Shown piece after piece: positions 1,055 through 33,708 of a stretch of DNA of 64,000 nt. A program made the translations under genes and the position numbers. Each line of letters opens with the position of its first letter. Within the stretch, counting starts at the first letter, position 1. This DNA comes from a virus (lineage: Duplodnaviria > Heunggongvirae > Uroviricota > Caudoviricetes). The stretch lies in the IMG/VR virus record IMGVR_UViG_3300029656_000140; one strand, 5' to 3'. The notes beneath the pieces were generated by a model that ran no database searches, was not told the origin of the DNA, and was given only the letters and a program-made list of their open reading frames with translations.

Positions 1055-1741
1055 TTAATCAGCTCCGGTACCGGGAGCCTTCCCCGTCAGGATGCCCATT
1101 GACACATATCCGTCCATCTGCTTGACCTCGGATTCTTTCAGATGCTCTTCCACTGGCACGCCAAAAGTACCTGCAATATCATCCGGGTAAAATCCCTTTC
1201 TGGTATCCGCAGGCTTTGTTTCCTGTGTTGTATTCTGGGCAGCACCTTTCTTACGCTTCTGAGGCTCATGGAAAATCTCAGGTACAAGCAAATCAAAAAC
1301 GTACAGAGTTTCCCCCTCGAAAGAAATCCTGTAGCCCAGCATCTTGTATCGGCACTCGCTGTCCCAGCCCATTTCTTTATAGACCAATTCCGAAAAAGGC
1401 TTACAGGACATCTTCCGGCTCTTACGCTTGTCCGGCTTTGCGATGCACCAGCGCAGAGCATCCTTGTCATTTTCATCACAGCCACGCACAACAATGCGCT
1501 TCAAATCGCTATTGAACATGACGTGGACATAAACCACATCTTCCAGCCCGGTGATGCAGGCTGTGTTGAATGTGATGCTGTCCTTGCGGATCACAATTGC
1601 AGGGTCACGAAGATGCGCGAACAGTTCTTTTCGGACGACCTGGTATCCGTCATACGAAAATGTACTCTCCAGTTCTTCAGCTTTTGCATCTCTATCAGTT
1701 TCCAATGCCTGCTGCGGCATCATCGCTCTGTTTTCTTCCAT
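1055..1741 (-). CDS. standalone DUF4368-like protein (recombinase C-terminal-domain homolog)
   Basis: 228 aa. The stretch SITFNTACITGLEDVVYVHVMFNSDLKRIVVRGCDENDKDALRW aligns with the C-terminus of the adjacent serine recombinase (LRFNTACLKKFEDVEYVELLLNSVDRCVAIRPCEKSNPNAIRW). It overlaps the recombinase 3' end. Confidence 0.5.
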   Translation of the reverse strand: MEENRAMMPQQALETDRDAKAEELESTFSYDGYQVVRKELFAHLRDPAIVIRKDSITFNTACITGLEDVVYVHVMFNSDLKRIVVRGCDENDKDALRWCIAKPDKRKSRKMSCKPFSELVYKEMGWDSECRYKMLGYRISFEGETLYVFDLLVPEIFHEPQKRKKGAAQNTTQETKPADTRKGFYPDDIAGTFGVPVEEHLKESEVKQMDGYVSMGILTGKAPGTGAD

Positions 1742-3566
1742 CTATGTCAATCCATCCTTCCATTATTTCTTCTGCCTCATGGAGCAAAGCATTCAGCCCC
1801 TCTGCGGTAAATATGTTCAATTCCTTAATTTCAGATGCCGGCCGGAGCACATCCCAATTCCCGGCATAATGCTCCTGCCGCAAAATGCCAACCTGTGCAA
1901 TGCTCGTGATTGGCTGTCCAAAAGTTCCTGCCCATTCAGGCGGGAAAATGTAAATCGTCTGTCTTATTGTTTTTCCCTCCGTATCTTCTTCCTTCGGCGG
2001 CAGAACGATTTTTTCAACTTTGATCATTTCCGGCTCATCCAGTTCAAAGAGCATCAGCTTATCGTCTCCCTGCTCCACAAGCTGTCCCCGGAAGCGGTAC
2101 TTCAAATTCTCATCCCACTCCATAATGTCAAAAAGGGCTTTTGCCAGACCGCGGCAGCCAAGTGTACTGGCACACCAGCGTCCTTGTTTCAGCCTGCCCC
2201 AGCGAATGGCATTCGGATTGCTCTTCTCACATGGACGAATGGCAACACAGCGGTCAACCGAATTCAGAAGCAGTTCTACATACTCCACATCCTCAAACTT
2301 TTTCAGGCAGGCAGTATTAAAGCGCAGCCTTCCATTTGAAATCGTCATCGCTGGATTCTGCAAGGTTGCAAAATACTGTGCCCGGACGACTTCATATCCT
2401 GTAAGATCCAGACGGTTCATTACCTCTGCCGTGTCGTGCCTCTCTTCCTGCATGACGCTTTCAGATGCTTCTCGATACTCTTCCGCAGAGAAACCTGTCC
2501 AGTCTTTATCAAAAGGCACATATCCACGGAGGATGCCATCGTCCACTACACTCAAAACCGGCAAAGGATGATTTTTCTTTTTATATGTCCGGGATGCACG
2601 CAGGTGATTGGCTGCGTTGAAAACATCTCTGGAGACAATTGCCTCGTGGTGATCTCGCTGGCGGTACTGCGTCCGGTCGTTATGGTTCTTCTTTGCCTTA
2701 TGGGTAAGGAAGTTTGGTGTGAAAGTCTTTCTCGCCAGTACATCTCCACAATGGCGTTCATTTGCAATGATGCCGGCAACAGTACCGGGATTCCACTCCG
2801 TGTTCCCCAGCTTCGTCTTCCGCTCGTAATCTGTCAGGAGTTCTGCAATATCTTTCAGTGAAAAACCGTTCAGGTACAGATAATAAATGACTTTTACCGT
2901 CTGTGCCTCTTCTGGATTCACCACAAGATTGCCATCTTCGTCCTGATCGTACCCCAACAAAGCAGGCGTGAGAAACAGTCCTCGGCTGAACCGGCGGTCA
3001 ATGGACCAGTTCATAATGATCGACTTGGAATGAGATTCTTCCTCTGCCACTGATGCCAGAATGGTCAAAATCATGCGGCCGTTGCTGTCCAGCGTATAGA
3101 TATTGTCTGCTTCAAATTTCACACCAACAGGTGGATCAAGATTTTTCAGTGTTTCAATGACAGAAAGGCAGTCCACAATGTTTCTGGCAAAACGGGCAAT
3201 GGACTTTGTAAGAATCAAATCAATCTTCCCGGCCTTGCAGTCTTCGATCAACTGCTGCATCCCCTTGCGATGCGCCAGTGAAGTGCCACTAATACCTTCA
3301 TCGTCATAGATGCCCACAAACTCCCATCCCGGCTGCGCCTTGATGTAATCGGTGTAATAATTTTTCTGAAGTTCGTAAGAAGAAGTCTGCTCATCATTAT
3401 CCGTGGAAACACGAACATAGGCAGCGACACGACGAATAGAGGTGCTCTCTCCAAGCCCCTCCACTGCTTTTGCCGGAATGACCTCCAGTTCGGAGGTATC
3501 CACGCCTTTATATCGATCTCTGATTCTTTGCTTGCGGTCTACCGCTTCTGTTCCACTGCTTATCAT
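1695..3566 (-). CDS. large serine recombinase (resolvase/invertase catalytic domain + recombinase domain + zinc ribbon + C-terminal DUF4368-like domain)
   Basis: Catalytic N-terminal domain RVAAYVRVSTDNDEQ...SIARFARN with the active-site serine. ATG at 3566 follows the RBS GAGAGGAAG. The longer ORF start at 3683 has no RBS. Confidence 0.9.
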   Translation of the reverse strand: MISSGTEAVDRKQRIRDRYKGVDTSELEVIPAKAVEGLGESTSIRRVAAYVRVSTDNDEQTSSYELQKNYYTDYIKAQPGWEFVGIYDDEGISGTSLAHRKGMQQLIEDCKAGKIDLILTKSIARFARNIVDCLSVIETLKNLDPPVGVKFEADNIYTLDSNGRMILTILASVAEEESHSKSIIMNWSIDRRFSRGLFLTPALLGYDQDEDGNLVVNPEEAQTVKVIYYLYLNGFSLKDIAELLTDYERKTKLGNTEWNPGTVAGIIANERHCGDVLARKTFTPNFLTHKAKKNHNDRTQYRQRDHHEAIVSRDVFNAANHLRASRTYKKKNHPLPVLSVVDDGILRGYVPFDKDWTGFSAEEYREASESVMQEERHDTAEVMNRLDLTGYEVVRAQYFATLQNPAMTISNGRLRFNTACLKKFEDVEYVELLLNSVDRCVAIRPCEKSNPNAIRWGRLKQGRWCASTLGCRGLAKALFDIMEWDENLKYRFRGQLVEQGDDKLMLFELDEPEMIKVEKIVLPPKEEDTEGKTIRQTIYIFPPEWAGTFGQPITSIAQVGILRQEHYAGNWDVLRPASEIKELNIFTAEGLNALLHEAEEIMEGWIDIDGRKQSDDAAAGIGN

Positions 3567-3576
3567 GTACTTCCTC

Positions 3577-4557
3577 TCATTCTTCCGGCTGTATGCTCCA
3601 GTACCACTGGCGCATCTTCCGATAACTTCGGATGCCGAGCTCCTTCTTTGTGTTTTCTGCTGTCCTGCGGCTGATGCCTTCATCGCTCATCCGCATATAA
3701 ATTTCTCTGGATCTCATATCTCCTTCAGAAAGCAGCTTTTTGATTAGATAGGCCGCTTTCTCAGACTTTGACTCAAAATTTGGTGTTTCCGGCTCCGCTA
3801 TTGGGTCCGGTGCAATCTCACACTCCAGCCAATGAAATCCTTCTTCTGCAGTTATCGAAAAACGGATTTCTCCATCGGATGGAGCCAGACTGTTTTTTAT
3901 CTGCCGGACAATGCGAACATCTGCGTTCTCTGGATCTCGTTCCACCTGCAGGACACTCCGGGCGGCCGCCACTACATCAATACTGCCAAGGCTCCGATAC
4001 AGACCTTTTGTTCCCTCTTTTTTGTTGAGGTGGCCGATCAGCACAATGGCGCAGTCATATACGGATGCCCACATGCCAAGACGCTGCATCAGCTTTCTGG
4101 CTCTGCCTGCAATCTGGAGGTCAGAATCGCTTCCAAGATACGCCTGTATCGGGTCGATGACTACCAGCCGAGGCCGGAATTCTATAATAGCCTGCCGGAT
4201 GCGTTCATCATCCAGTGTCAGGCCACTGTATGTTTCTTCATTTATAAAGGCCACATTCCTGCAATCTGCCCCACACTTTTCCAGCCGGGGCTTGATGGTA
4301 TCTGATACACCATCTTCTGAGCACTGGTAAATGACCCTCTGTGATAATCCAACGGCTTTGCCATCCGGCAGCTTTCCGCCTTTTGATAACTCTGCTATCA
4401 GATTCATCATCATTGTGGACTTACCGTCACCGGGGTCTCCTTGCAGTAATGTGATCTTCCCAACTGCAATGAACGGATACCACAACCAGCGAACGGCAGT
4501 CGCTTGTACATCACTATATAATGTAAGAATTCCTGTTTCTCCTTTGTTCGCCATCAT
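3577..4557 (-). CDS. RecA-like AAA ATPase (AAA_25/RepA-like) of integrative elements
   Basis: Walker A motif GDPGDGKST and Walker B LVVIDPIQ. It sits immediately upstream of the serine recombinase in the same operon. Confidence 0.75.
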   Translation of the reverse strand: MMANKGETGILTLYSDVQATAVRWLWYPFIAVGKITLLQGDPGDGKSTMMMNLIAELSKGGKLPDGKAVGLSQRVIYQCSEDGVSDTIKPRLEKCGADCRNVAFINEETYSGLTLDDERIRQAIIEFRPRLVVIDPIQAYLGSDSDLQIAGRARKLMQRLGMWASVYDCAIVLIGHLNKKEGTKGLYRSLGSIDVVAAARSVLQVERDPENADVRIVRQIKNSLAPSDGEIRFSITAEEGFHWLECEIAPDPIAEPETPNFESKSEKAAYLIKKLLSEGDMRSREIYMRMSDEGISRRTAENTKKELGIRSYRKMRQWYWSIQPEE

Positions 4558-5385: not shown

Positions 5386-6048
5386 CTACTTAGTATTGTC
5401 TACACCGTTGTTATCCTCTGCTTCTAGTCGCGGTAAAGTTCCCCAATCATCCGGGTATTTGAGTTTATCATAATCTATCTTTTTGGCTCGATAGATAATT
5501 TGACTAAACACACTCTCCTCTGCATCTTTTATATATGTAGCAATAATTCTGTAGGAATCCTTTATATTGTCCCGGATATCTCCCTCAAGTAATGTATCCG
5601 GAACATAGTCTCCAGTTCCCGTAACATCACGGAAGCCAAGTGCCCATTTTACACCGCCGACAAGTTTTTCGGTGTATAACAACGGATGTGAATTATTATA
5701 ATTTCCCATCATACTTGCAGACAGGTTAGCATTTTTAAAGGCAAAAGGCAAAACTGCCAGCTTTTGATGTGTCGTTCCTTTCCCCGCAAAGTCAATATCG
5801 GTTTCTTTCAATCGACCATCAATACAGAAATTATAAAAATCAAGATGCGACCATGTACTATTTGTAAGTTCCAGTCCTGTAAGATGATGAAAGTTACTAG
5901 CATCAAATCCAACCTCAAGCGATGAAACCTTCTTATGTTTATCGGTAACTACAAAGAGTAATCGCTTTCCAACAAAATTATTTTTGTACAGCCTCGCTGC
6001 TGATATTGCTATCGAAACTGCCTCTTTCTTTGTGTACTTCTTTCCCAT
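5386..6048 (-). CDS. hypothetical cargo protein in a low-GC island; candidate defence/abortive-infection or toxin-like protein
   Basis: 220-aa ORF in a ~38% GC segment set in ~55% GC DNA. No motif I can assign, although FHHLTGLE is conserved-looking. It converges on the XRE gene. Confidence 0.55.
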   Translation of the reverse strand: MGKKYTKKEAVSIAISAARLYKNNFVGKRLLFVVTDKHKKVSSLEVGFDASNFHHLTGLELTNSTWSHLDFYNFCIDGRLKETDIDFAGKGTTHQKLAVLPFAFKNANLSASMMGNYNNSHPLLYTEKLVGGVKWALGFRDVTGTGDYVPDTLLEGDIRDNIKDSYRIIATYIKDAEESVFSQIIYRAKKIDYDKLKYPDDWGTLPRLEAEDNNGVDNTK

Positions 6049-6126
6049 TCTGTATATTCCAATTCATTTATGTAAAAATTTAAAGGGAGACTACAACACC
6101 GCAGTGCTGTGCGTCTCCCTTTATGA

Positions 6127-6235
6127 CTGATTTTATCGTTGTCCGCCAACACTCCAGCCCATACGTCTGGATTCGCTATCAGGTTTTATCGTTGCCTGCC
6201 AACCCTCCGGCCTATGCATCCGGATTCACTATCGG
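6127..6235. repeat. two-copy imperfect tandem direct repeat (~53 bp, ~80% identity)
   Basis: ttttatcgttgtccgccaacactccagcccatacgtctggattcgctatcag is followed by ttttatcgttgcctgccaaccctccggcctatgcatccggattcactatcgg. Confidence 0.6.
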
Positions 6236-14147: not shown

Positions 14148-14250
14148 AATTCCGTCCTTTCCGCCCGTATCCGGGCAATAAAAATAGACAGCCGAAGCTG
14201 CCCTTTGATATGGATTATATATAAAAACACGGACAAGCCGTGGGATTTGA

Positions 14251-23566: not shown

Positions 23567-26500
23567 TTACTTGAAGACCGAATCATCCTCATGGATCATG
23601 CCGTTGATCTTATCCGCAACGGTCTGTGCGAGTTCATCGTCGTTCCGGGCATTATAACCGTTGACTGTGATATACACACCGCCAAGGTTGGTCGTCCGGG
23701 TGGTGCCACCTCCGGCCAGAGCCGCCTGCGGGAAGTTCCAACCGGAGCCATCGAAATGTGGCAAAGTCAGTTCCGGCAGACTGAAGGAGCTGATGCCCTC
23801 CATACCCTGCTGTACCTTTGCTGCCATCGACCTGATCTGGCTGATCAGTCCGCCTTCGCCTTTCTTGATGCCGCCGGAAAGCAGCTTCATGAAGTCGGGC
23901 ATATAGGTGTCGGCATCTGCCAGCGGTCCTTCATCCGGCACAGAGAAGTGCAAGAATGAGCGGATGCCATTTGCCACACTCTTGACCGCATTGCCGACCC
24001 AGCTCACGCCTTTCTTGATACCGCCCGCGATACCGCCAACGATGTCCTTGCCCCAGCTGACTGCCGAAGAAGCCACGTTCTTGATACCACCCCAGATGGA
24101 CGATGCCACATTGCCAATAGCCGATGCCGCATTGGAGATACCATTCTTAATGACATTCACACCATTCGAGAATGCCGACGTAACCTTGTTCCAGATATTT
24201 GTGACACCTTCCCGGAAGCCATCGCAGTTTTTCCAGAGAGCGGTAAGTCCAAGACCGATGCCGCCAACGGCTGCCACTGCGATACCTGCAGGACCCGCCA
24301 AGCCGGCAAGTGCTGTGCCTGCGGATGCGAGGAACCCACCTGCGGAGCTTGCTACGCCTGCAAGGGCTGTACCCGCGCCAGCGGCCAGACCGGATACAGT
24401 CGTACCCACAGATCCGAGCAGACCGGAAAGCGTTGTGCCGACTGTCCCGGCAATACCGCCCAGCGAAGAACCGATAGATGATACGATACCGGAAAGACTG
24501 CCGCCTAAGCCGCCGATCTTCGACACTACACCGGAAAGCAGCCCACCCAGATTCGACAGGATTCCCCCACCGCTGGAGCCAAGGCTTCCCAGCTTCGAGA
24601 TGATGCCGGAGATTCCCTCTCCCAGACCGCCCATTTTGGAGGTCAGCCCAGAGATCAGATTGCCAAACTTCGACACGATCTGACCTCCATCTGCACTGCC
24701 GATCTTCGACAAGAAATCTCCGATGTTGGACAACAGACCACCGCCGTTCTCTGTACCGAGGACATTGCCAAGGTTCTGCATCGTATTTCCGAGATTTCCG
24801 ATGGTGTTCTTCATGGAGCCGAGCTTGTCCACTAGACCCGTGACCGTATTGACCGTGTCACCGACCTTGCTGATGCCGTTGCCCAGGCTCTTTAGGAAAT
24901 CCGAGTTGAAGGTATCGCCAAGACTGCGGATCGCATTTCCAAGAGAACTGGTCTGAGAACTCAGCTCTCCAACGGAATCCTTCATATCCGCAAAGCCCTG
25001 CTTCACTTCATCGCTCATGCCGCCGACTGCGGTTTTGGTGATACCCTGCAGGTCAGTCCAGATCTGCTGGAACTGTGTTTTCAGACCGGAAAGCCCGGAC
25101 ATCAACTGGGACTGGATACCGCTGCCCACATCCCTTGCAGCACTACCGATACCGCTCTGACTTTTCTTGATCGTGGTAGCAAAACTGCCGACCACGGAAT
25201 CCATCCAGTCGCCCAGAGAATCTACCGGGGTCGTGAGGTTGTTGCTCATAGACCCGGCTAGTCCCTGCACGGCTTTCACCACCGACTTGACATTTTTCTT
25301 AATGCCGGTCGCCAGCAGCTTCATGAAGTCCGGCATATAGGTATCTGCATCAGACAGAGGTCCTTCATCTGGTACAGAGAAATGCAGCAGGCTTCTGACC
25401 CTGCTTGCGACATTTTCTGCCGCTGCGATCACGGAACCGGCTGCTGCCCGGACACCTGACGCCATCTGGGAACAGATATCTGCACCCCAGCGGTATGCCG
25501 AAGAAGCAATCGAACCGAGCGAGTTAAAGCTACTCCTGATGCTTGCAACACCAGAAGAAACCGTGCTGCGCAGGCTGGACATTGCCGAAGACACCGTAGA
25601 CTTGATGCTGTTGAAGGCAGAGGTCGTGGTAGATTTCAGTGTGTTCCAGCCGCTTGTGACCGTACTGCGAACTGCGGATACAGAGGAAGCTGTAAGACTC
25701 TTGATGCTGTTCCATGCAGTCGTGATGACTGTTTTGATACCATTCCAGCTGGTATTTGTCAGGTTTTTCACCGCATTCCATGCGCTGGTCATGGACGTTT
25801 TTACAGAAGCGCTCGCAGAGGTGGTAAGGGATTTAATCCCGTTCCACGCTGTGGTAATGACCGTTTTAATTCCGTTCCAGCTGGTCGTTGTCAGCGACTT
25901 CACCGCATTCCATGCACTGGTCATGGACGTTTTCACTGCTGCTGTCGCAGAGGTCACATTGGATTTCACCGCCGAGAAGCTGTTCTGGATACTGGACTTG
26001 ATGGTATTCCATGTGCTGGCGGTACTGGTCGTAATGGAACTCCATGCGGATCTCATCGCAGCACTTACACCTGCCGTTCCGGTTTTCACCGTCTGGCTGA
26101 TGGCTGCCCAGCTCTTACTGTATGCCTGCTCCACACCCCTCATGGAGTTGGTGATGGAGGTAGACAGCGTGGTGGACAGGTTCTCCGCCGCCGCAGTCAC
26201 AAGGCTGGTGTTGGTCGTGATACCGTTTGCCAGACCCTGCATGAAGTCCGGCATCCAGCTTTCCATATCTGCCAGAGGTCCTTCATCCGGCACAGAGAAG
26301 TGCAGGAAGGAACGGATACGGTCTGCCACTCCCGATACAGCACTTGCCACATCTTGAATCCTCGACTGGATACCGGACACAATGTTGCCGATCATGTCAG
26401 AGCCCCACGAGAACGCCTGTCCAGCCAGACCCTTGATAAAGGAAACTGCACTGTTAAAACCGTTCGTGATGGTGGACTTGATACCGGAAATCGTAGAGGA

Positions 26501-29476
26501 AATCCCGGATTTCATCGAGTTAAAAGCTGTGGTCGCCGCGCTCTTAATGCTGTTACTGAGGGACGATACCGTGGATTTCATGGCATTCCAGCCGGAAGAA
26601 ACTACCGATTTGATGCCATTTACTACACCGGAGATCTTGCTGCTGATGGCATTCCAGATGGAAGAAACCGTGGACTGGATCGCAGAAAGGACAGTCGAGA
26701 TGACCGTTTTGATCGCATTCCATGCCGTACTCATCCGGGTCTGGATGCCAGTCAGCAGCGGAGACAGGAACGACACAATGGCGTTCCACACCGTCGTCAC
26801 TGCAGTCTGGATCGCAGTCAGCACCGTGGAGATGGCTGTCTGGATTGCCGACCAAACCGTAGAGAAAGTCGTCTGCAATCCAGTCAGCATTGGAGTCACG
26901 AAGGCAACGATGGCGTTCCAGATGGACGTGATCTTCGTCTGAATTGCGGTCAGTGCTGCGCCGATCAGGATCTGGATCGCCTGCCAGATGGTTTCAAACA
27001 GATATTTGAACGCATCCAGCAAAGGCTTGATGGTGTTATAGATTCCGTTCCATACTGTGGTGATCGTGATGCTGATGGAGTTCATGACCGTAGAGATTGC
27101 GGTCGAGATTGCCATCCACACAGTTGTCACCGTGGTATGGATCGTATTCAGCACGGAAGAAACTGCTGTGGAAATGGCCGTCCAGATGGTGCTGAAAGTC
27201 GTCTGGATACTCGTAAGGACCGTCGTAAAAAAGCTCGAAACTGCTGTGAACACAGTCGTTGCTACACTTTGGATGGTAGAAACCGTGTTTGAAAAGAAGC
27301 TGCTGATTCCGCTCCACACGGTCTCGAAGAAGCTCTTGATACTGCCCCAGACCGTCTGCCAGTCCGTACCGAACAGACCGAGGAACACATCCAGTGCGCT
27401 CTTTAGTGCGGTAAGCGTCGTGGAGAATACAGACTTCACACCGTCCCAGATGCTGGAGAAGATGCCTTTTACTGCTTCCCATGCGCCGCTCCAGTTGCCG
27501 GAGAACACATTGGAAAAGACATCAAATAGACCGAGCAGTGTATCCAGAACCGTACTCAATACCGTAGCCACAATCTGGAACGCTCCCTCAAACAGCGGTG
27601 CAAGCACCTGACAGAAGCCATCCCATACTACCTTCAGTACCTCAGTGACATCCTTAAAATCAAAGCCCAGCCCATTGATCCGCTGTGTCAGCTGGTCGCA
27701 GAAGCCTTTCACCTTGGAAACGATGTCGTTCCAGATGCCGGTAATGGCAGTACGGAACTCCTCGTTGGTGTTCCAGAGATTCATGAACGCCGCCACCAGT
27801 GTACCGACGACCGCCACCACTGCTACGACCGGGCCGGACAGACCACCCAGAACCACACCCAGCTTGCTGAACACACCGCTGGCACTGCCCACATGGGTGA
27901 TAAGAAGCCGGACACCCTTTGCAAGAGAACTGAATCCCCGCATCGCTGTGCCGACGGTCGATATGGTCTTGCCAAGCACAATGAGCAGCGGACCAATGGA
28001 TGCTGCCAGGAGTCCGATCTTGACGATCGTTTCTCTGGTACTTTCATCCATGCTGTTGAGCTTGTCCACGAACTGCTGCACGGCAGATACGATCTTACGG
28101 ATGATCGGCATCAGGATATCGCCAAAAGAAATAGCCAGCTCCTCCAGCTGAGATTTCAGGATGGTGAGCTGACCATTTAAGTTATCCTGCATGGTTTCTG
28201 CCATGCTCTCGGATGCGCCATCGCAGTTTTCAATGGCTCCACGCAGTTTGTTGATGTCCGTCTCGCTGGAATTCATCAGGGCAAGGAAGCCGGACATGGC
28301 ATTCTTGCCGACCAGTGCCTCTGCGTTGGCGGCCTTCTCAGATTCCGACAGCCCGGAGAATGCCACACGGCAGTCCGCAAGGATGTCGTTCAGGCTTCTC
28401 ATGCTGCCATCTGCGTTGCTGGTCGCAATCGTAACCTCACCGATGTTCTTGCCCACAAAGGTCACTTCACCGGAAAGGTTGTTCATGATGGTACGAAGGG
28501 AAGTACCAGCCTGTGAAGCCTTGATACCACTGTTTGCCATCAAACCGATGGCTTCTGCGGTATCCTCTGCCGAGAACCCCAGTGCACCGGCGATAGGTGC
28601 GCAGTACTTGAACGTCTCGCCCATCATGGAGACATTGGTGTTCGCATTGGAGGAAGCGGCTGCAAGAATATCTGCAAAATGCCCGGAATCCTCAGCAGAT
28701 AAGCCGAAAGCAGTAAGAGCATCGGTTACGATATCCGAAGTCGTGGCGAGGTCTTCACCCGAAGCGGCCGCGAGGTTCATGACGCCCTCGATGCCGTTCA
28801 GCATGTCAGAAGTCTTCCATCCGGCCATGGCCATGTATTCCATCGCCGAAGCTGCCTCGGATGCAGAGAACTTGGTCTTTGCACCCATCTCACGGGCTTT
28901 CGCTCGGAGCTGGTCAAAGTCATCCCCGGTCGCACCGGAAATGGCAGAGACCTTACTCATCTCGGAATCAAAATCGGCTGCGGTCTTCACTGCGGCAGTG
29001 CCAAGACCCGTCACAGCGGCAGTCACCGGAAGGAACTTCTTGCCTACATTCTCCACAGAAGATCCGATGTTCTGGAGCTTTTCTCCAGCTTCATCGATTT
29101 TGGCAAGAGTCGCATTGGTAGTAGCCGCCTGATCCTGTAAGGATCGCAGATTCTGTTCGGTCTCCACGATCTCACGCTGAAGAGCATCGTACTGCTGCTG
29201 GGTGATCTCACCATTGGCAAGCTGCTCATTGGCCTGCTGTGCGGCAGTCTTCAGAGTTGCCAGCTTTTCCTTGGTAGCTTCAATGGCATCCTTAAGCATC
29301 TTCTGCTTCTGGACGACCAGTTCTGTATTGGAAGGGTCCAGTTTCAGGAGTTTGTTGACATCCTTCAGTCCGGACTGCGTCCCCTTGATTGACTTGTTTA
29401 CACTTTCCAGTGCTTTGGAGAGCTTTGTGGTATCGCCGCCAATCTCAACGGTGATGCCCTGGATTCTGGATGCCAT
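23567..29476 (-). CDS. tail tape measure protein (1970 aa)
   Basis: The N-terminus is TP901-type (MASRIQGITVEIGGDTTKLSKALESV). The protein is long and repetitive. ATG at 29476 follows the RBS AAGGAGGTGG. Confidence 0.9.
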   Translation of the reverse strand: MASRIQGITVEIGGDTTKLSKALESVNKSIKGTQSGLKDVNKLLKLDPSNTELVVQKQKMLKDAIEATKEKLATLKTAAQQANEQLANGEITQQQYDALQREIVETEQNLRSLQDQAATTNATLAKIDEAGEKLQNIGSSVENVGKKFLPVTAAVTGLGTAAVKTAADFDSEMSKVSAISGATGDDFDQLRAKAREMGAKTKFSASEAASAMEYMAMAGWKTSDMLNGIEGVMNLAAASGEDLATTSDIVTDALTAFGLSAEDSGHFADILAAASSNANTNVSMMGETFKYCAPIAGALGFSAEDTAEAIGLMANSGIKASQAGTSLRTIMNNLSGEVTFVGKNIGEVTIATSNADGSMRSLNDILADCRVAFSGLSESEKAANAEALVGKNAMSGFLALMNSSETDINKLRGAIENCDGASESMAETMQDNLNGQLTILKSQLEELAISFGDILMPIIRKIVSAVQQFVDKLNSMDESTRETIVKIGLLAASIGPLLIVLGKTISTVGTAMRGFSSLAKGVRLLITHVGSASGVFSKLGVVLGGLSGPVVAVVAVVGTLVAAFMNLWNTNEEFRTAITGIWNDIVSKVKGFCDQLTQRINGLGFDFKDVTEVLKVVWDGFCQVLAPLFEGAFQIVATVLSTVLDTLLGLFDVFSNVFSGNWSGAWEAVKGIFSSIWDGVKSVFSTTLTALKSALDVFLGLFGTDWQTVWGSIKSFFETVWSGISSFFSNTVSTIQSVATTVFTAVSSFFTTVLTSIQTTFSTIWTAISTAVSSVLNTIHTTVTTVWMAISTAISTVMNSISITITTVWNGIYNTIKPLLDAFKYLFETIWQAIQILIGAALTAIQTKITSIWNAIVAFVTPMLTGLQTTFSTVWSAIQTAISTVLTAIQTAVTTVWNAIVSFLSPLLTGIQTRMSTAWNAIKTVISTVLSAIQSTVSSIWNAISSKISGVVNGIKSVVSSGWNAMKSTVSSLSNSIKSAATTAFNSMKSGISSTISGIKSTITNGFNSAVSFIKGLAGQAFSWGSDMIGNIVSGIQSRIQDVASAVSGVADRIRSFLHFSVPDEGPLADMESWMPDFMQGLANGITTNTSLVTAAAENLSTTLSTSITNSMRGVEQAYSKSWAAISQTVKTGTAGVSAAMRSAWSSITTSTASTWNTIKSSIQNSFSAVKSNVTSATAAVKTSMTSAWNAVKSLTTTSWNGIKTVITTAWNGIKSLTTSASASVKTSMTSAWNAVKNLTNTSWNGIKTVITTAWNSIKSLTASSVSAVRSTVTSGWNTLKSTTTSAFNSIKSTVSSAMSSLRSTVSSGVASIRSSFNSLGSIASSAYRWGADICSQMASGVRAAAGSVIAAAENVASRVRSLLHFSVPDEGPLSDADTYMPDFMKLLATGIKKNVKSVVKAVQGLAGSMSNNLTTPVDSLGDWMDSVVGSFATTIKKSQSGIGSAARDVGSGIQSQLMSGLSGLKTQFQQIWTDLQGITKTAVGGMSDEVKQGFADMKDSVGELSSQTSSLGNAIRSLGDTFNSDFLKSLGNGISKVGDTVNTVTGLVDKLGSMKNTIGNLGNTMQNLGNVLGTENGGGLLSNIGDFLSKIGSADGGQIVSKFGNLISGLTSKMGGLGEGISGIISKLGSLGSSGGGILSNLGGLLSGVVSKIGGLGGSLSGIVSSIGSSLGGIAGTVGTTLSGLLGSVGTTVSGLAAGAGTALAGVASSAGGFLASAGTALAGLAGPAGIAVAAVGGIGLGLTALWKNCDGFREGVTNIWNKVTSAFSNGVNVIKNGISNAASAIGNVASSIWGGIKNVASSAVSWGKDIVGGIAGGIKKGVSWVGNAVKSVANGIRSFLHFSVPDEGPLADADTYMPDFMKLLSGGIKKGEGGLISQIRSMAAKVQQGMEGISSFSLPELTLPHFDGSGWNFPQAALAGGGTTRTTNLGGVYITVNGYNARNDDELAQTVADKINGMIHEDDSVFK
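23887..26320 (-). repeat. three dispersed intragenic direct repeats (~85 bp) inside the tape measure gene
   Basis: The DNA catgaagtc(c/g)ggcat...ggtccttcatc(c/t)gg(c/t)acagagaa(g/a)tgca occurs at 23887-23975, 25321-25400 and 26240-26320. Each copy encodes LHFSVPDEGPLxDxxxxMPDFM. Confidence 0.8.
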
Positions 29477-29619
29477 TTGCGTAACCACCTCCTTGCAGGC
29501 ATGAAAAAAGCCCATCTGCACGAAGCAGACAGGCTAAAGGAAAAAATGCTATTAGCTGTGTATCAAAGTCATCCTTTCAGCATACAATATATTTATCAGT
29601 AAATTTATCGACTAACCGG

Positions 29620-29648
29620 TTGATATTTTTGCAAACGTGTGCTATAAT
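29620..29648 (+). promoter_or_regulatory. near-consensus sigma-70 promoter for the TA moron (TTGATA, 17 bp, TGcTATAAT)
   Basis: ttgata (29620-25), a 17-nt spacer, then tataat (29643-48) preceded by TGc. It is followed by the RBS AAAGGAG. Confidence 0.6.
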
Positions 29649-29674
29649 GCAATCAAAGAAAGGAGTTGACGATT

Positions 29675-29998
29675 ATGGCTTCTGTTATGAGTGCTATTAC
29701 TAACACTGTTCCAATCACCCAATTCAACCGTGGTCTTGCCGGAAAAATATTTGAAGATGTCAAGCAGTGCGGTGCCAAGGTTGTTATGAAAAACAATGCT
29801 GCCGAATGCGTTCTCATCTCCCCGGACGAATATGTCCGTTTAATGGATGAATTAAATGATGCTCGTCTGCTGGCTGTTGCTTCTGAACGTATGGCACACT
29901 TTGATCCCACCTCTTTGATTTCTGAGGAAGAAATGAACCGCCGTCTCGGTGTTACAGAAGACGATCTCGCCGGTTTTGACGAGGTAGAAATCGAATGA
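29675..29998 (+). CDS. Phd/YefM-family antitoxin
   Basis: The sequence VPITQFNRGLAGKIFEDV...VVMKNNAAECVLISPDEYVRLMDEL is typical Phd/YefM. Its stop overlaps the toxin start in ATGA. Confidence 0.8.
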   Translation: MASVMSAITNTVPITQFNRGLAGKIFEDVKQCGAKVVMKNNAAECVLISPDEYVRLMDELNDARLLAVASERMAHFDPTSLISEEEMNRRLGVTEDDLAGFDEVEIE

Positions 29999-30330
29999 GC
30001 TGGAAAGTTGAATACCTCCCTGAAGCAGAAAAAGACCTCAAAGGTTTAGATGGTAGCCAGCGCAATCTTGTTCTGAAAGCCATCAAAAAAGTTCAGCAAA
30101 ATCCACTGCCTGTTGATGAACAGGGCTACGGCAAACCGCTCGGCAATCACAACAGCACTAACCTTGCAGGACTTCTGAAAATCAAACTCCGCTCTGCGGG
30201 TCTGCGCATTGTCTATCAGCTTCGACGTACTGAGACATCTATGATGATTATTGTCATTGGAGTCCGTGCTGATGAAGAAGTGTACGAACTTGCCCAGAAG
30301 AGAGTTCTGAAGCACGAAAAGTCCGATTGA
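29995..30330 (+). CDS. RelE/ParE-family toxin
   Basis: LKIKLRSAGLRIVYQLRRTETSMMIIVIGVRADEEVY matches the RelE/ParE core. Confidence 0.8.
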   Translation: MSWKVEYLPEAEKDLKGLDGSQRNLVLKAIKKVQQNPLPVDEQGYGKPLGNHNSTNLAGLLKIKLRSAGLRIVYQLRRTETSMMIIVIGVRADEEVYELAQKRVLKHEKSD

Positions 30331-30430
30331 CTTTTTCTGCCTAATCGACTATACTTTGATGATGATCAGGTTTCGGTAACCTTGCGAGGTCCGATACCGG
30401 GAAGATGACCTTCGGGCCACCTTCTTTCTC

Positions 30431-30462
30431 CCCCAGTTGTGCACGGCTGGGGGATTTTTTAT
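30431..30462 (+). terminator. intrinsic terminator after the TA operon
   Basis: cccccag-ttgtgcacgg-ctggggg followed by atttttt. Confidence 0.7.
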
Positions 30463-30475
30463 ACCCATCACCAGA

Positions 30476-30532
30476 CGATTGTGCTTATTTCGTTCACAAT
30501 ATAAGCACGGTCGTCTGTTTTTTGCTTTAGAA
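30476..30532 (+). terminator. second long hairpin plus T6 (back-up terminator)
   Basis: cagacgattgtgcttat...ataagcacggtcgtctg forms a ~17-bp stem with 2 mismatches, followed by tttttt. Confidence 0.5.
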
Positions 30533-30718
30533 TCGGTCAAAGTCCGCCTGACTTGCCAGTTCCTTGTACGGATAATCGTCATTCTGCCGTTCTGTGAACA
30601 TATCATTGACCAACCCGATGGTCAGCAGGTCTAGGTCGGCAATGCTGATACCGAGCTGTACACAACGCAGCAGAAAGAGCGGGGTGGTCATTTCCCGCTC
30701 ACTTTTGCGAGGTTTTTT
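30527..30718 (-). CDS. gpT-like extension reached by a -1 programmed frameshift (G-T fusion)
   Basis: The mRNA heptamer A_AAA_AAC (rc of 30712-30718) is in frame as AGA AAA AAC. The -1 frame stays open for ~60 codons to 30527. A possible stimulatory hairpin AGCGGG...CCCGCU lies ~12 nt downstream. Confidence 0.55.
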   Translation of the reverse strand, partial: KKPRKSEREMTTPLFLLRCVQLGISIADLDLLTIGLVNDMFTERQNDDYPYKELASQADFDRF

Positions 30719-31068
30719 CTGGATTCCACCTCCGTCTGCACATTCAGACCCCACAGTTCGATCAGCTGGGGCAGAATCTGGTAGATGGAAAATGTGTTAA
30801 ACTGGTCAAGGAACTCCTCCGGGCTGTCCGGCACATTGGCCGGGTCTGCATGACGGGCCATCAGCCATGCCAGGTCCTCAAACATTTCCAGACTGAACAG
30901 GTCGAGGTTGGAATTGTCCTCGTCGTTCTCTCCCACGCTCTTTTCCAGCTGGCGCAGGTCCTTGTAGATGTCACGGCCAAACTTGATGCGGTACAGGCGA
31001 GGCACAGCGGCACTTGCCTTAAAGGTGACTTCCTTGCCATCGATCTCAATTTTCTTTGTAACTGCCAT
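30688..31068 (-). CDS. tail assembly chaperone (gpG-like)
   Basis: A 126-aa acidic protein between the major tail and tape measure genes. RBS GGAGGA. It ends in a slippery site. Confidence 0.65.
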   Translation of the reverse strand: MAVTKKIEIDGKEVTFKASAAVPRLYRIKFGRDIYKDLRQLEKSVGENDEDNSNLDLFSLEMFEDLAWLMARHADPANVPDSPEEFLDQFNTFSIYQILPQLIELWGLNVQTEVESRKNLAKVSGK

Positions 31069-31101
31069 AATCGTAATCCTCCATAAATTTCATGTAAAAT
31101 T

Positions 31102-31121
31102 GGCAGAGCCGAAGCCCTGCC
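31102..31121 (-). promoter_or_regulatory. UUCG-tetraloop hairpin downstream of the SPFH gene (copy 2 of a duplicated element)
   Basis: The transcript GGCAGGGC-UUCG-GCUCUGCC is followed by CAAUUUUAC. The 18-nt core gcagagccgaagccctgc is identical to 31989-32006. Confidence 0.55.
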
Positions 31122-31135
31122 GTATATCGTGTTTC

Positions 31136-31963
31136 TTACTCTGCCGGGTCAATGCTGACCAGTGCATTACCGCCACTCACAGTGGGCAGCTTTCCATCCC
31201 ACTTCTGAACCTTCTGGTAATCGATCAGCGTATCGGACAGGCTTTCTGCCAGTTTGCGGTTTGCCTCTGCCTGTGCTTCTGCGGCAATAGAAGTCTTCTG
31301 GGCTTCCGCCTCTGCATTGGTGATCGCCACCTGCTTATCCGCTTCTGCCTTGGCAATAGCAGCTTCATTCTCGATCTTCTGCTTATCTGCGTTCTGCTGT
31401 GCAATGGACTTCTGCTGGATGGCTTCGTTGTAGGCATCCTCGAAATTCATGTCGTTGATGACGACCTTGTTCACAAACACAACGTCCTCGCCATACTTCT
31501 GCACAAGAGATTCTGCCAGCTTCTGCTGTGCCAGAGGCTCGATCTTGGTGCGGTTCGTCACCTCATTGGGGGCAAGTTCAGCCATCGCAGACTTGATTGC
31601 CGATGCCACCAGCTCGTCACCGACCAGATTCTTGATGTCTGACACATTCGCATACAGCCATGCACTCTTCTCAGGAAGCACCTGATAGGTCACGATGACA
31701 TCAGCGGCATACACAGGAGTCTTGTCGGAGGCTTCGCCCCAGACCTGTGCTTCGATGTGTTTATCCTGCTGCTTGTTGTTGACCTTGTGAATGCTCTGCA
31801 CAAAGGGGATGCAGAAGTTGAGCTTGCCGCTCTGGATGGTGGTCTCCTGGATCTGGCCGAAGCTGGTCTTCACGCCCGTGTAACCGGTGGGGATGATGTG
31901 GAACGAGCAGACAGCCAGTACCAGAACGATGATCACTGCGAACAAAGGAAAAATCTTCTTCAT
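31136..31963 (-). CDS. membrane-anchored SPFH/band-7 (prohibitin/stomatin-like) protein; moron in the tail module
   Basis: N-terminal transmembrane helix MKKIFPLFAVIIVLVLAV, then an SPFH domain and a coiled coil (AEAEAQKTSIAAEAQAEANRK). RBS AAAGAGG. ATG at 31963. Confidence 0.8.
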   Translation of the reverse strand: MKKIFPLFAVIIVLVLAVCSFHIIPTGYTGVKTSFGQIQETTIQSGKLNFCIPFVQSIHKVNNKQQDKHIEAQVWGEASDKTPVYAADVIVTYQVLPEKSAWLYANVSDIKNLVGDELVASAIKSAMAELAPNEVTNRTKIEPLAQQKLAESLVQKYGEDVVFVNKVVINDMNFEDAYNEAIQQKSIAQQNADKQKIENEAAIAKAEADKQVAITNAEAEAQKTSIAAEAQAEANRKLAESLSDTLIDYQKVQKWDGKLPTVSGGNALVSIDPAE

Positions 31964-31988
31964 AATCGTATACCTCTTTATAATAATG

Positions 31989-32008
31989 TAAGCAGAGCCG
32001 AAGCCCTG
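31989..32008 (-). promoter_or_regulatory. UUCG-tetraloop hairpin downstream of the major tail protein gene (copy 1)
   Basis: The same 18-nt core gcagagccgaagccctgc is followed by an AU-rich run. Confidence 0.55.
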
Positions 32009-32025
32009 CAGTGTGTGTCGGTCAC

Positions 32026-32640
32026 TTAGCCCTGCGGCTCCTCGGTGTGACTGGTGTCTTCGGTGTCCACAGCTTCCGCCTGCGGCTCGTAGACCGCATC
32101 GTACCACTTGTTATAGACATCATCGGTGGTGTTGGTACCGGTCTTCGCCTTGACATAACCGTTTGCCAGAGGGGTTGCCTGCAGGTTCAGGGTGTCCGTC
32201 TTGACTTCCTTGCTGTCCTCATTGGTCTCACCCTCGATAGACGGACGGCTTGCCACACAGTTGTACAGCACATGACGGATGTGACGCTGGTCGCCATCAA
32301 ACTCGAACAGAAAAGCAAAATGCTCCAGTTCCACATTGGCGTTCTCTGCAAGCACGCCGTTGCCATCCAGCTCCTCGTGCATAATGTCCGTGAGGAAGCT
32401 CTCCGGGATCAGCGCGATCTCCAGATCACCCTCGTAGCCGGAGTTGTTATTCACGACATAGTAGGCGATGTTGTCCGCATAGAACGGTTCAATCTCGCCA
32501 TTGGCATCCATAGAAAGACTGACTGCACCGGGGATGCGGACCGGCTTTGCATAGGTGACACTGCCATCTTCGTCAAAGGTCGCCTTGGCATAATGGCAGT
32601 TTTTCAGGCCAAATTTGACCTTATTGCTTTGCTTCGACAT
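32026..32640 (-). CDS. major tail protein
   Basis: Its position, ~200-aa size and siphovirus major-tail-like sequence fit. RBS AGGAGGAA. An expression-boosting hairpin follows it. Confidence 0.75.
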   Translation of the reverse strand: MSKQSNKVKFGLKNCHYAKATFDEDGSVTYAKPVRIPGAVSLSMDANGEIEPFYADNIAYYVVNNNSGYEGDLEIALIPESFLTDIMHEELDGNGVLAENANVELEHFAFLFEFDGDQRHIRHVLYNCVASRPSIEGETNEDSKEVKTDTLNLQATPLANGYVKAKTGTNTTDDVYNKWYDAVYEPQAEAVDTEDTSHTEEPQG

Positions 32641-32671
32641 AGGTTATTCCTCCTATCGTCCTGCGGCTGGC

Positions 32672-32989
32672 TTATACGGTCAGCTCATACAGGACTTCAT
32701 ACATCTTTTCGGTTTCGATCCAGACCTCGCTTTTCTCATAGTAGAGTTCGTGTGCGGTCAGGACTTCTTCAATGCTTGCTTCCATATCCGGGTCTTTGTA
32801 ATCGGTGTACACCTCAATGTCCAGCCGGTTGAAATGGTGGTACACAAGGTTGTCCGCACCGAAATTCTCGGCTTTCGGATACAGGAAGCAGATAAACGGT
32901 GGATCAGGGCTCTCCCCTTCTGCGAAATGGTCATACGCATAAGGAAGCCCCATCTCCTCCATCAGAGCTTTTACTTCTTCGTGGGTCAT
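32672..32989 (-). CDS. small tail-associated hypothetical protein (tail terminator/DUF3168-like position)
   Basis: Gene order and the RBS AAGGAGAAA support it. Confidence 0.45.
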   Translation of the reverse strand: MTHEEVKALMEEMGLPYAYDHFAEGESPDPPFICFLYPKAENFGADNLVYHHFNRLDIEVYTDYKDPDMEASIEEVLTAHELYYEKSEVWIETEKMYEVLYELTV

Positions 32990-32999
32990 TGGTTTCTCC

Positions 33000-33377
33000 T
33001 TACTTTAGTGCCTTTTCGATGAGAGACTGGAGCTGCTCGATGCCGGCCTGCTCTGCCGGAGCGATATGGGGTCTTCCTGCCACCCGTCCGCCGCCGCGCT
33101 TGGCATGACCTTTTTCCAGCAGATGTGCCAGCTGGTAGCGGTTCTTGGAATGCACCACCATCTGAAGGCTCTGGCTGGATTCGGACTGTTTGGTCGCCAC
33201 CCAGCTTCCTTTGTATGCACCCGTTCTGGACGGTGCATTGGCCGAGATCTGGTCTTTGACCGTTTTGGCAGACTTACGGACAGCACTCTTCACCTGCGTA
33301 GAAGCAAGGGTCGCATATTCTTTTAAGCCCTCGTTGATGGCATCTGCCATCTCATCAATGCTGACGGTTCTGCTCAT
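33000..33377 (-). CDS. HK97 gp10-family tail-component protein
   Basis: The C-terminal region GHAKRGGGRVAGRPHIAPA is typical of the HK97 gp10 family. Confidence 0.65.
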   Translation of the reverse strand: MSRTVSIDEMADAINEGLKEYATLASTQVKSAVRKSAKTVKDQISANAPSRTGAYKGSWVATKQSESSQSLQMVVHSKNRYQLAHLLEKGHAKRGGGRVAGRPHIAPAEQAGIEQLQSLIEKALK

Positions 33378-33708
33378 CCGGCTGCCTCCTTTCCAGTCTG
33401 CAATGAATCTTCAGGATCTTCTTCTGATAGTTCATCGGGTCAACGGATTCGATATTGTAGAGCTGATCTCGGAAGCGGATGCGGTAACCTGTTGATGTGA
33501 GATTTCTGGTCTCACTGCACCAGCGAACTGTAAACACCACGCTCTTCTGTTCGGCTGTGACCTCACCTTCTTCTTCCTGTGCCTGATAGGTCGAAGCGTA
33601 GGCAAAGCAGGTGAAATATTCCTCCCATGTGTTCCGATGGTTTCCGACCTTATCGGTCACGACCGTGCTTTTCTCGATTGTGATCCGCTCATTCAGTTTC
33701 TCGATCAT
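33355..33708 (-). CDS. head-closure / head-tail adaptor protein
   Basis: Position and size match head-closure proteins. Confidence 0.55.
   Translation of the reverse strand: MIEKLNERITIEKSTVVTDKVGNHRNTWEEYFTCFAYASTYQAQEEEGEVTAEQKSVVFTVRWCSETRNLTSTGYRIRFRDQLYNIESVDPMNYQKKILKIHCRLERRQPDEQNRQH

Follow-up and report, generated by a model that had tools for sequence, protein, structure and literature searches.

An SPFH-family membrane protein gene bracketed by a duplicated stem-loop module in the tail operon of gut siphophages

What is a gene for a membrane protein of the SPFH/Band-7 superfamily doing among the tail genes of a phage, and how did it get there? The question is raised by a locus in the 64-kb window analysed here (the window being the whole stretch of viral DNA, IMG/VR record IMGVR_UViG_3300029656_000140). 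An earlier note on this DNA proposed that the gene was inserted at the stem-loop usually found after the major tail gene, that the insertion duplicated this stem-loop, and that the product is a candidate superinfection-exclusion or abortive-infection moron expressed from the prophage. We find that the history of the locus is largely as the note had it, and that the function probably is not.

The SPFH gene and its neighbours

The phage genes of the region are all on the minus strand and follow one another, in order of transcription, as portal, ClpP-like prohead protease, major capsid protein, head-tail connectors, major tail (tube) protein (MTP), SPFH protein, tail assembly chaperone G/T and tape measure protein. 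A plus-strand toxin-antitoxin pair is placed between the chaperone and tape measure genes. The MTP gene (32026..32640, minus strand; 204 aa) is recognized by TIGR01603 (E = 3.6e-35), PHROG 88 (E = 5e-59) and Pfam PF06488. It is followed by the SPFH gene (31136..31963, minus strand; 275 aa and a stop) and then by the gene for chaperone G (30688-31068, minus strand; 126 aa; PHROG 709, E = 1e-39). The -1 frameshift extension of the chaperone, T, ends at 30527 (PHROG 3033, E = 1e-23; G+T unit 30527..31068, minus strand), and a slippery heptamer, A AAA AAC, can be read in frame at 30712-30718 of the chaperone gene. The tape measure gene (23567..29521, minus strand) is likely to have its true start at the ATG at 29473, and a terminator-like stem-loop (29509-29535) lies just upstream of the gene. 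Further downstream are more tail genes, together with genes for a holin, endolysins and a large serine recombinase, and from this content we take the phage to be temperate. Its annotated relatives in GenBank are the 'NatCom' gut phages of Ca. Heliusvirales (DNA identity 64-70%), an order that has been reported from 95% of human gut metagenomes (10.64898/2026.05.08.723808). The sub-clade to which the window belongs consists of temperate gut siphophages with hosts among the Clostridia, and cultured lysogens of the SPFH-phage lineage are found in Clostridium fessum (candidate strain SNUG30386), Blautia faecis (DFI.3.66) and Faecalibacterium intestinale (CLA-AA-H281).

The SPFH open reading frame matches Pfam Band_7 (PF01145) with E = 4e-17 and 63.3 bits (cut-off 23.6), over profile positions 2-175 of 176, and matches PHROG 200 with E = 4e-39. 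An AlphaFold2 monomer model (pLDDT 90) has a helix at residues 4-20, strands at 21-95 and 162-174, and a helix at 176-241. These correspond to a transmembrane (TM) helix (4-20), the SPFH domain (21-174) and a long coiled-coil helix of 66 residues (176-241), and conserved residues (W255-G257-P260) lie near the C-terminus. The best Foldseek matches of the model are prohibitin, HflK/C, erlin, stomatin and QmcA (E = 1e-14 to 1e-12), and the best sequence matches among solved structures are HflC (E = 1.4e-6) and PHB2, PHB1 and QmcA (about 1e-5). A profile score above the curated threshold, together with an alpha/beta fold, a long helix and an N-terminal anchor, places the protein in the SPFH superfamily (PF01145). 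Thus, the Pfam and PHROG matches, the pLDDT-90 model and the profiles of the neighbours bear out the claim that an SPFH protein with an N-terminal TM anchor is encoded between the MTP and G/GT chaperone genes.

Within the superfamily, the protein is HflC-like and not an HflC. It scores far below the cut-offs of the NCBIfam HflC models (30.3 against 427 bits for NF008259; 23.4 against 134.4 bits for TIGR01932). No pair of hflK- and hflC-type genes was found in the window or in any relative, all of which have a single SPFH gene between the tail and chaperone genes, and no NfeD or FtsH partner is encoded near it. The residues before the TM helix are MKK, MKKHR or MKKR in all SPFH lineages, and the helix continues directly into the first SPFH strand. 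Because positive residues precede the helix and the helix abuts this strand, the SPFH domain is predicted to face outward. The positive-inside rule and the analogy with HflC, which are the basis of this prediction, suggest a single-pass protein with its N-terminus inside and its SPFH domain outside the cytoplasmic membrane.

The label of PHROG 200 includes 'lipoprotein', and we rejected this reading. The Cys19 of the window's clade is replaced by R-S, Q-S or T-S in L080, L083, L092, L093 and L094. Since this cysteine is not conserved, the protein is not a lipoprotein, and it does not have the lipobox of the Ltp/Llp-type exclusion lipoproteins.

Homologues are widespread in other phages. Members of PHROG 200 ('prohibitin family / band 7 / lipoprotein') include proteins of Faecalibacterium phage Toutatis, Escherichia phage Skarpretter, Bacillus phages AR9 and PBS1, and the T4-like phages RB43, 44RR and Aeh1, and a library of 1.84 billion proteins contains 3990 relatives of the SPFH protein at E <= 0.001. 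The homologues of Toutatis, Lelie, phiFN37 and Skarpretter are located among replication genes (early regions, with primase/helicase and dUTPase), those of large gut phages lie between DNA methyltransferase and RNA ligase/kinase genes, and one on a gut scaffold follows two endolysin-like genes. A tested function for any phage SPFH or PHROG 200 protein was not found in the searchable literature, which holds annotation-level mentions only. The window's protein adds a new member to a large phage family that is known but uncharacterised.

A stem-loop module on both sides of the gene

An 18-mer, GCAGAGCCGAAGCCCTGC, occurs exactly twice in the 64 kb, at 31103-31120 and at 31992-32009. No such repeat is expected by chance (0 of 100 shuffles, with up to 2 mismatches allowed). 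One copy follows the MTP gene and the other the SPFH gene, and both fold into UUCG hairpins, as the earlier note had described. On the sense strand, stem-loop A is GCAGGGC-UUCG-GCUCUGC, with a stem of 7 bp (-13.8 kcal/mol for a 56-nt segment, z = -2.4). Stem-loop B is GGCAGGGC-UUCG-GCUCUGCC, with a stem of 8 bp (-15.7 kcal/mol, z = -4.4), and is followed by AAUUUU. Both stems are closed by a C(UUCG)G loop on the sense RNA.

The similarity extends past the 18-mer: it begins about 8 nt ahead of the stem, runs up to the start codon, and takes in UACAU, the ribosome-binding site (RBS) and ACGATTATG. What is repeated, 889 nt apart, is therefore an intergenic module of about 60 nt. Module A (31964..32025, minus strand), after the MTP gene, consists of stem-loop A (31992-32009), UACAU (31986-31990) and the RBS AAGAGG (31973-31978), and leads into the SPFH ATG. 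Module B (31069..31135, minus strand), after the SPFH gene, consists of stem-loop B (31102-31121), UACAU (31092-31096) and the RBS GGAGG (31078-31082), and leads into the chaperone ATG. A covariance model scores module B at 48.5 bits and module A at 42.2 bits, and these are the only two strong copies in the window; a third match, at 14178-14212, is weak (15 bits). Rfam has no match on either hairpin (29000-33500), and only sub-threshold chance matches elsewhere.

Several features suggest that the hairpin works as RNA on the sense strand, as judged from sequence comparison. Among 23 distinct hairpin variants, pairing is kept in 89% of cells, and sliding the partners lowers this to 38-48%. One pair changes from A-U to G-C, and another changes from G.U to A-U in four variants. 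The conserved G.U pairs can form on the sense strand alone; the opposite strand would have A.C mismatches in their place. The loop itself is variable (UUCG, UUUG, UUCA, CUCG, UUAG, GGAG, AUUG or AAAC), and other lineages have hairpins of wholly different sequence at the same spot.

In a simple terminator scan, hairpin B passes (8 bp and then AAUUUU, a short U-tract) and hairpin A fails, having no U-tract. Terminator activity is therefore uncertain for both. MazF might process the RNA at the conserved UACAU, since this 5-nt core agrees with its target. In Bacillota, however, the strict motif is UACAUA, and the sites here read UACAUU or UACAUG.

Acquisition, persistence and precise loss

Three differently seeded searches agree that the gene is an insertion. 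The search of the viral collection seeded with the SPFH protein gave 80 loci (SPFH identity 87-100%), with the order MTP-SPFH-chaperone wherever the flanks are on the contig. The MTP-seeded search, which used one genome per species and is not biased towards SPFH, found the gene in L085-L094 only (MTP identity at least 74%) and found it absent from about 70 relatives at MTP identity 60-74%. The chaperone-seeded search, also unbiased, found it in 76 of the 78 newly fetched loci screened. Because these searches agree, we consider the gene to be specific to a clade and not a universal component of the tail module. The earlier note had named universal presence at this position in related phages, together with lack of expression in lysogens, as an outcome that would count against it; presence is close to that within the clade, in the chaperone-seeded loci, and ends at its border. 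In a neighbour-joining tree of the four flanking proteins, computed without support values, the carriers form one clade whose sister (L095-L099) lacks SPFH; a two-protein version moves L094 to the SPFH-less sister clade.

The junction between MTP and chaperone genes in phages without the insert, which the note had proposed to compare, is informative. In most of the distant relatives the two genes abut or overlap (gaps of -4 to 15 nt) and there is no hairpin. Among the nearest SPFH-less relatives, L097 and L099 have a single GC-rich stem-loop at this junction, followed by UUUACAUGA (UACAUGA) and GGAGGAU, and L096 has a single hairpin of different sequence. L103 has a single copy of the window's own stem, GGCAGGGC-UUAG-GCUCUGCC, followed by ACGAUUAUG. 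By comparison, a hairpin is present on both sides of the SPFH gene in all four lineages that carry it (the window's clade, the L08x clade, L094 and L324). Hairpin B is the same element as the ancestral post-MTP hairpin. These comparisons show that the SPFH gene was, to judge from the sequences, acquired once, by the ancestor of the sub-clade, at the post-MTP stem-loop. They also show that, since then, the gene has been passed down together with the tail module and that recombination has moved it between these phages as well. The proposed insertion at, and duplication of, the stem-loop is thus supported by the single hairpin in most of the sister clade and the two in SPFH lineages. The statement that the stem-loop normally follows the major tail gene holds for the nearest relatives only, because the distant ones have abutting genes without a hairpin.

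The acquisition was not recent. GC and GC3 of the SPFH gene (0.528 and 0.681) are those of its neighbours (0.538 and 0.688 for the MTP gene, 0.528 and 0.685 for the chaperone gene). Its dN/dS is 0.04-0.09, at dS of 0.6-1.1, and that of the MTP gene is 0.07-0.11. As the flanking genes diverge, SPFH diverges with them, to as little as 71% identity. By these measures the gene is evidently old and fixed, under purifying selection as strong as that on its neighbours, and no recent arrival. The nearest homologue outside the tail module (L322) is 61% identical and lies between methyltransferase genes.

The two hairpin copies seem to undergo concerted evolution, presumably through gene conversion. In L324, modules A and B are nearly identical to each other over about 50 nt and quite unlike those of the window. 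In L094, the 3' arms of both hairpins share CCCUGUC, and the MTP reading frame reads through hairpin A. L324 shows the concerted pattern clearly, whereas L094 and the L08x clade suggest it; the identity matrix is not decisive.

The repeat can also take the gene out again. Two phages from different samples (L306 and L320) are without exactly the 889-nt cassette, and with it the SPFH gene. The junction left behind is a hybrid with the 5' flank of module A, the stem-loop and the 3' flank of module B. To the left for 950 nt and to the right for 2378 nt, the sequence of L306 and L320 is 100% identical to that of SPFH-carrying phages (L311, L312 and L319). Exact-pattern scans of the viral collection found 2 hybrid junctions as against 65 of A type. 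Because SPFH is ancestral in the clade, we interpret L306 and L320 as recent deletions by recombination in the 18-nt repeat. An assembly artefact is unlikely, because the repeat is shorter than the usual assembler k-mers. These genomes show that recombination in the 18-nt core has, by all appearances, deleted the cassette precisely and restored a normal tail-chaperone junction. Other phages lost the gene differently: in L251 there is an internal microhomology deletion within SPFH, and in L094 SPFH is interrupted by an in-frame stop, with flanking genes intact in both. L169 was considered as an intermediate relative and ruled out, since it carries a deletion that fuses the MTP gene to SPFH.

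Since the cassette can be removed precisely with a normal junction restored, the SPFH gene is dispensable in the short term. A gene that is dispensable over short times and selected over long ones has the profile of an accessory fitness gene. The same data bear on whether the protein has a part in tail structure or assembly, perhaps as a membrane platform, which would make its gene a conserved core gene and not cargo. Its fixed position in the tail operon across the whole clade, and selection as strong as on structural genes, would fit such a role. However, about 70 relatives with the same tail genes do without it, the lesions in L306, L320, L251 and L094 left the flanking genes intact, the fold is that of a membrane-anchored SPFH protein, and homologues in other phages lie outside structural modules. 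We regard a structural role as very improbable.

L306 and L320 on the one hand, and L311, L312 and L319 on the other, are natural near-isogenic pairs that differ only by the cassette over the flanks compared. Since such pairs and cultured lysogens exist, the function of SPFH is directly testable. The locus is, moreover, a clean example of an 18-nt RNA hairpin that is at the same time a site of recombination, through which genes are gained and lost.

Expression, possible roles and known systems

Is the SPFH gene a moron, as the earlier note proposed? Morons are recognized by a promoter of their own, a terminator of their own and deviant GC (PMC3594210). The SPFH gene is absent from relatives, as expected of a moron, but no promoter of its own was found and its GC is not deviant. 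A consensus scan of the sense (minus) strand from 31964 to 32640 found no promoter-like site, although weak or non-consensus Clostridia promoters would escape such a scan. Hairpin A and the SPFH RBS are only about 15 nt apart, which leaves no room for a promoter between them, and the gene is co-oriented with the late operon. A 9/12 match on the sense strand in module B (31098-31070) was dismissed because the start would fall downstream of the RBS.

The toxin-antitoxin cassette next door (29620..30454, plus strand), delineated by domain profiles, promoter and terminator scans and GC3, is different in each of these respects. It is autonomous and not part of the SPFH unit. It consists of a promoter (29620-29648; 11/12 consensus match), a Phd/YefM-like antitoxin gene (about 29675-29998), a ParE/RelE-like toxin gene (29995-30330) and a terminator (30429-30454), with the gene pair spanning 29666-30330 on the plus strand. 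Its GC3 is 0.41-0.45, compared with 0.64-0.69 for its neighbours, and its presence varies among relatives. With every mark of a moron that was looked for, this cassette is the actual moron here, and it is this cassette and not SPFH that sits at the position of HK97 gp15. Position in the tail operon does not by itself mark a gene as a lysogenic-conversion moron.

HK97 gp15 is nevertheless a direct precedent for a membrane protein that protects a lysogen: it is an inner-membrane protein, expressed from the prophage, that blocks DNA entry (PMC3594210). An SPFH protein made in this way from the repressed prophage could act by superinfection exclusion or abortive infection. It is accessory and polymorphic in presence and absence, a terminator-like hairpin follows the gene, and a domain predicted to face outward would be well placed to block DNA entry. 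Against this, no promoter was found, none would fit between hairpin A and the RBS, and GC3 is native. The protein has no match among the 5027 defence models of PADLOC-DB v2 at E up to 0.01, and we found no literature link of SPFH proteins to phage defence or defence islands. Homologues occur in virulent phages (Skarpretter, AR9/PBS1 and the T4-likes), which have no lysogens to protect, and the cysteine that a lipobox would need is not conserved, unlike in Ltp-type exclusion lipoproteins. We think it unlikely that the gene is a prophage-expressed moron.

Exclusion could instead operate during infection. An SPFH protein made together with the tail proteins might block DNA entry or the receptor, so that released virions do not eject their DNA into the membranes of dying cells, and late superinfection could be excluded as well. 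The role proposed for T5 Llp and the function of T4 Imm and Sp are analogues of such a block. Consistent with it are the predicted outward-facing domain and a place in the late operon, beside the genes for tail tube, chaperone and tape measure. So is the wide distribution of a dispensable family in virulent and temperate phages, and in virulent phages the location in early regions is as expected if exclusion operates during infection. However, no SPFH protein is known to act in this way, and the neighbours of the homologues are methyltransferases, RNA ligase/kinase and, in one phage, endolysins, and not entry functions. A block of this kind seems to us distinctly improbable.

Based on these results, we think it probable that SPFH is an old, dispensable yet selected gene of the late operon, whose product is HflC-like and predicted to face outward. 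Because it has no promoter of its own, the gene would be read from the late (tail) transcript during lytic growth. Both stem-loops, on the sense RNA, may act as leaky terminators or 3'-end stabilisers, and could thereby grade expression from tail tube through SPFH to the chaperones and tape measure. The protein may assemble into a ring or cage, as its solved relatives do, and a late-made, outward-facing cage could enclose a membrane client, for which an FtsH-type protease is a guess informed by the family. We tentatively suggest, as a reading somewhat less likely than not, that the cage forms late in infection around a membrane client, with an FtsH-type protease as the most plausible one, and that phage membrane or lysis proteins are thereby protected or the timing of lysis is set. 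Such a late role would not be family-wide, because homologues in other phages sit in early regions.

A more far-reaching speculation, in our judgement quite improbable, is that the stem-loop/UACAU/RBS module is a portable 'landing pad' through which short-homology recombination brings single ORFs into the late operons of gut siphophages and takes them out again, and that the SPFH cage blocks DNA entry mediated by the tape measure protein. If so, the module would be a promoter-less counterpart of the T4 PeSL cassettes, and the cage would give exclusion or progeny protection by a mechanism undescribed for SPFH proteins.

Comparison with known systems sets off what is particular to this locus. 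HflC/HflK and the prohibitins form SPFH cages that enclose AAA+ membrane proteases. The phage protein shares with them the N-terminal TM anchor, the SPFH domain, the long coiled-coil helix and the C-terminal cap region, and has a positive N-terminus before the TM helix as in HflC. Unlike HflC/HflK, it is only about 17-24% identical to the solved chains (Foldseek) and is the product of a single gene encoded in a tail operon. Whereas members of PHROG 200 elsewhere lie in early or replication regions, the window's gene has been captured into a late tail operon. Like HK97 gp15, it is an extra membrane-protein gene among tail tube, chaperone and tape measure genes that is absent from relatives; unlike SPFH, gp15 is small and YebO-like, has its own promoter and terminator and deviant GC, and is expressed in lysogens (PMC3594210).

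The closest parallel to the bracketing modules is the PeSL of T4-type phages. These promoter-early stem-loop repeats flank non-essential ORFs, and recombination between them leads to precise gains and losses between near-identical phages (PMC2839356). In both systems, short stem-loop modules bracket a dispensable ORF, and recombination between the repeats gives precise indels. However, PeSLs contain a strong sigma-70 early promoter and are present in many copies in the hyperplastic regions of myoviruses (PMC2839356), whereas the SPFH module consists of a stem-loop and an RBS without a promoter, and has two full-score copies in the late operon of a siphophage. What is new here is a promoter-less stem-loop/RBS module that flanks a single ORF in duplicate within the late operon of a siphophage, together with precise excision of the cassette.

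Probable exchange and possible rearrangement at the SPFH locus

At the related phage locus L324 (3256-6400), identity to the window is 85% for the SPFH gene, 81% for the gene for tail assembly chaperone G and 84% for that of chaperone T. In contrast, identity is 71% for the major tail protein gene, 68% for both gp10 and the tail terminator, and 71% for the tape measure gene. L324 is a mosaic, in which the segment running from SPFH through the chaperone genes was apparently swapped between lineages.

In several contigs and gene calls, SPFH is fused to pieces of the major tail protein, the prohead protease or a peptide deformylase domain (L169, about 2850-3770; L133; L098; proteins P0108 and P0079-P0083). 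These fusions reflect either deletions or rearrangements at the SPFH locus or chimeras of assembly.

Two further relatives, L080 (2984-3690) and L092 (about 5520-6230), have a homing-endonuclease-like ORF inserted directly 3' of hairpin B, the stem-loop that follows SPFH; its HNH and AP2 domains were assigned by reading the sequence rather than by profile search. This ORF has taken over the earlier RBS of the chaperone, which now has a new one.

The prophages L085-L093, from the genome contigs collection, have tail proteins that are 89-100% identical. Their recorded hosts (Clostridium fessum, three Blautia species, Faecalibacterium intestinale, F. prausnitzii and Lawsonibacter) cover Lachnospiraceae and Oscillospiraceae/Ruminococcaceae, which means that the host range is unusually broad or that the records stem from contamination and mis-binning.

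Cargo and hairpins elsewhere in the prophage

Between the gene for chaperone T and that for the tape measure protein, the window has a Phd/YefM-ParE/RelE toxin-antitoxin pair, whose cassette (29620-30454, in the gap 29474-30526) lies on the plus strand, opposite to its neighbors. The cassette has a promoter matching the consensus at 11 of 12 positions, a strong terminator and a GC3 of 0.41-0.45. It is a textbook moron, at the same position in the tail operon as gp15 of HK97. Relatives have between 35 nt and ~3.4 kb in this gap, with different cargo.

Hairpins of one design seem to punctuate the late operon. Stem-loops with a UUCG-type loop followed by a U-run are also found on the minus strand between the last tail gene, which has a GDSL-lipase domain, and the holin gene (14178-14212), and just 5' of the tape measure RBS (29509-29535). 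Past the lysis genes, close to the left end of the prophage, are a PBECR4 (Barnase/EndoU/colicin-like nuclease) protein (5386-6048) and a large serine recombinase (1695-3683), both on the minus strand.

UACAU next to the stem-loops

On the minus strand, UACAU lies 3' of both stem-loops: at 31986-31990 for stem-loop A, which follows the major tail protein gene, and at 31092-31096 for stem-loop B. It is found 1-6 nt past both stem-loops in almost all SPFH-carrying lineages, with UACAC in one variant, and also after the stem-loop in L097 and L099, two loci without SPFH. The motif is more conserved than the stems. Between 11.4 and 38.4 kb, the sense strand contains UACAU three times, compared to 10-17 expected, and two of the three are those at stem-loops A and B. 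UACAU is the core motif of MazF from Gram positive bacteria, and UACAUA the strict one; the window sites, UACAUU and UACAUG, match the core but not the strict motif.
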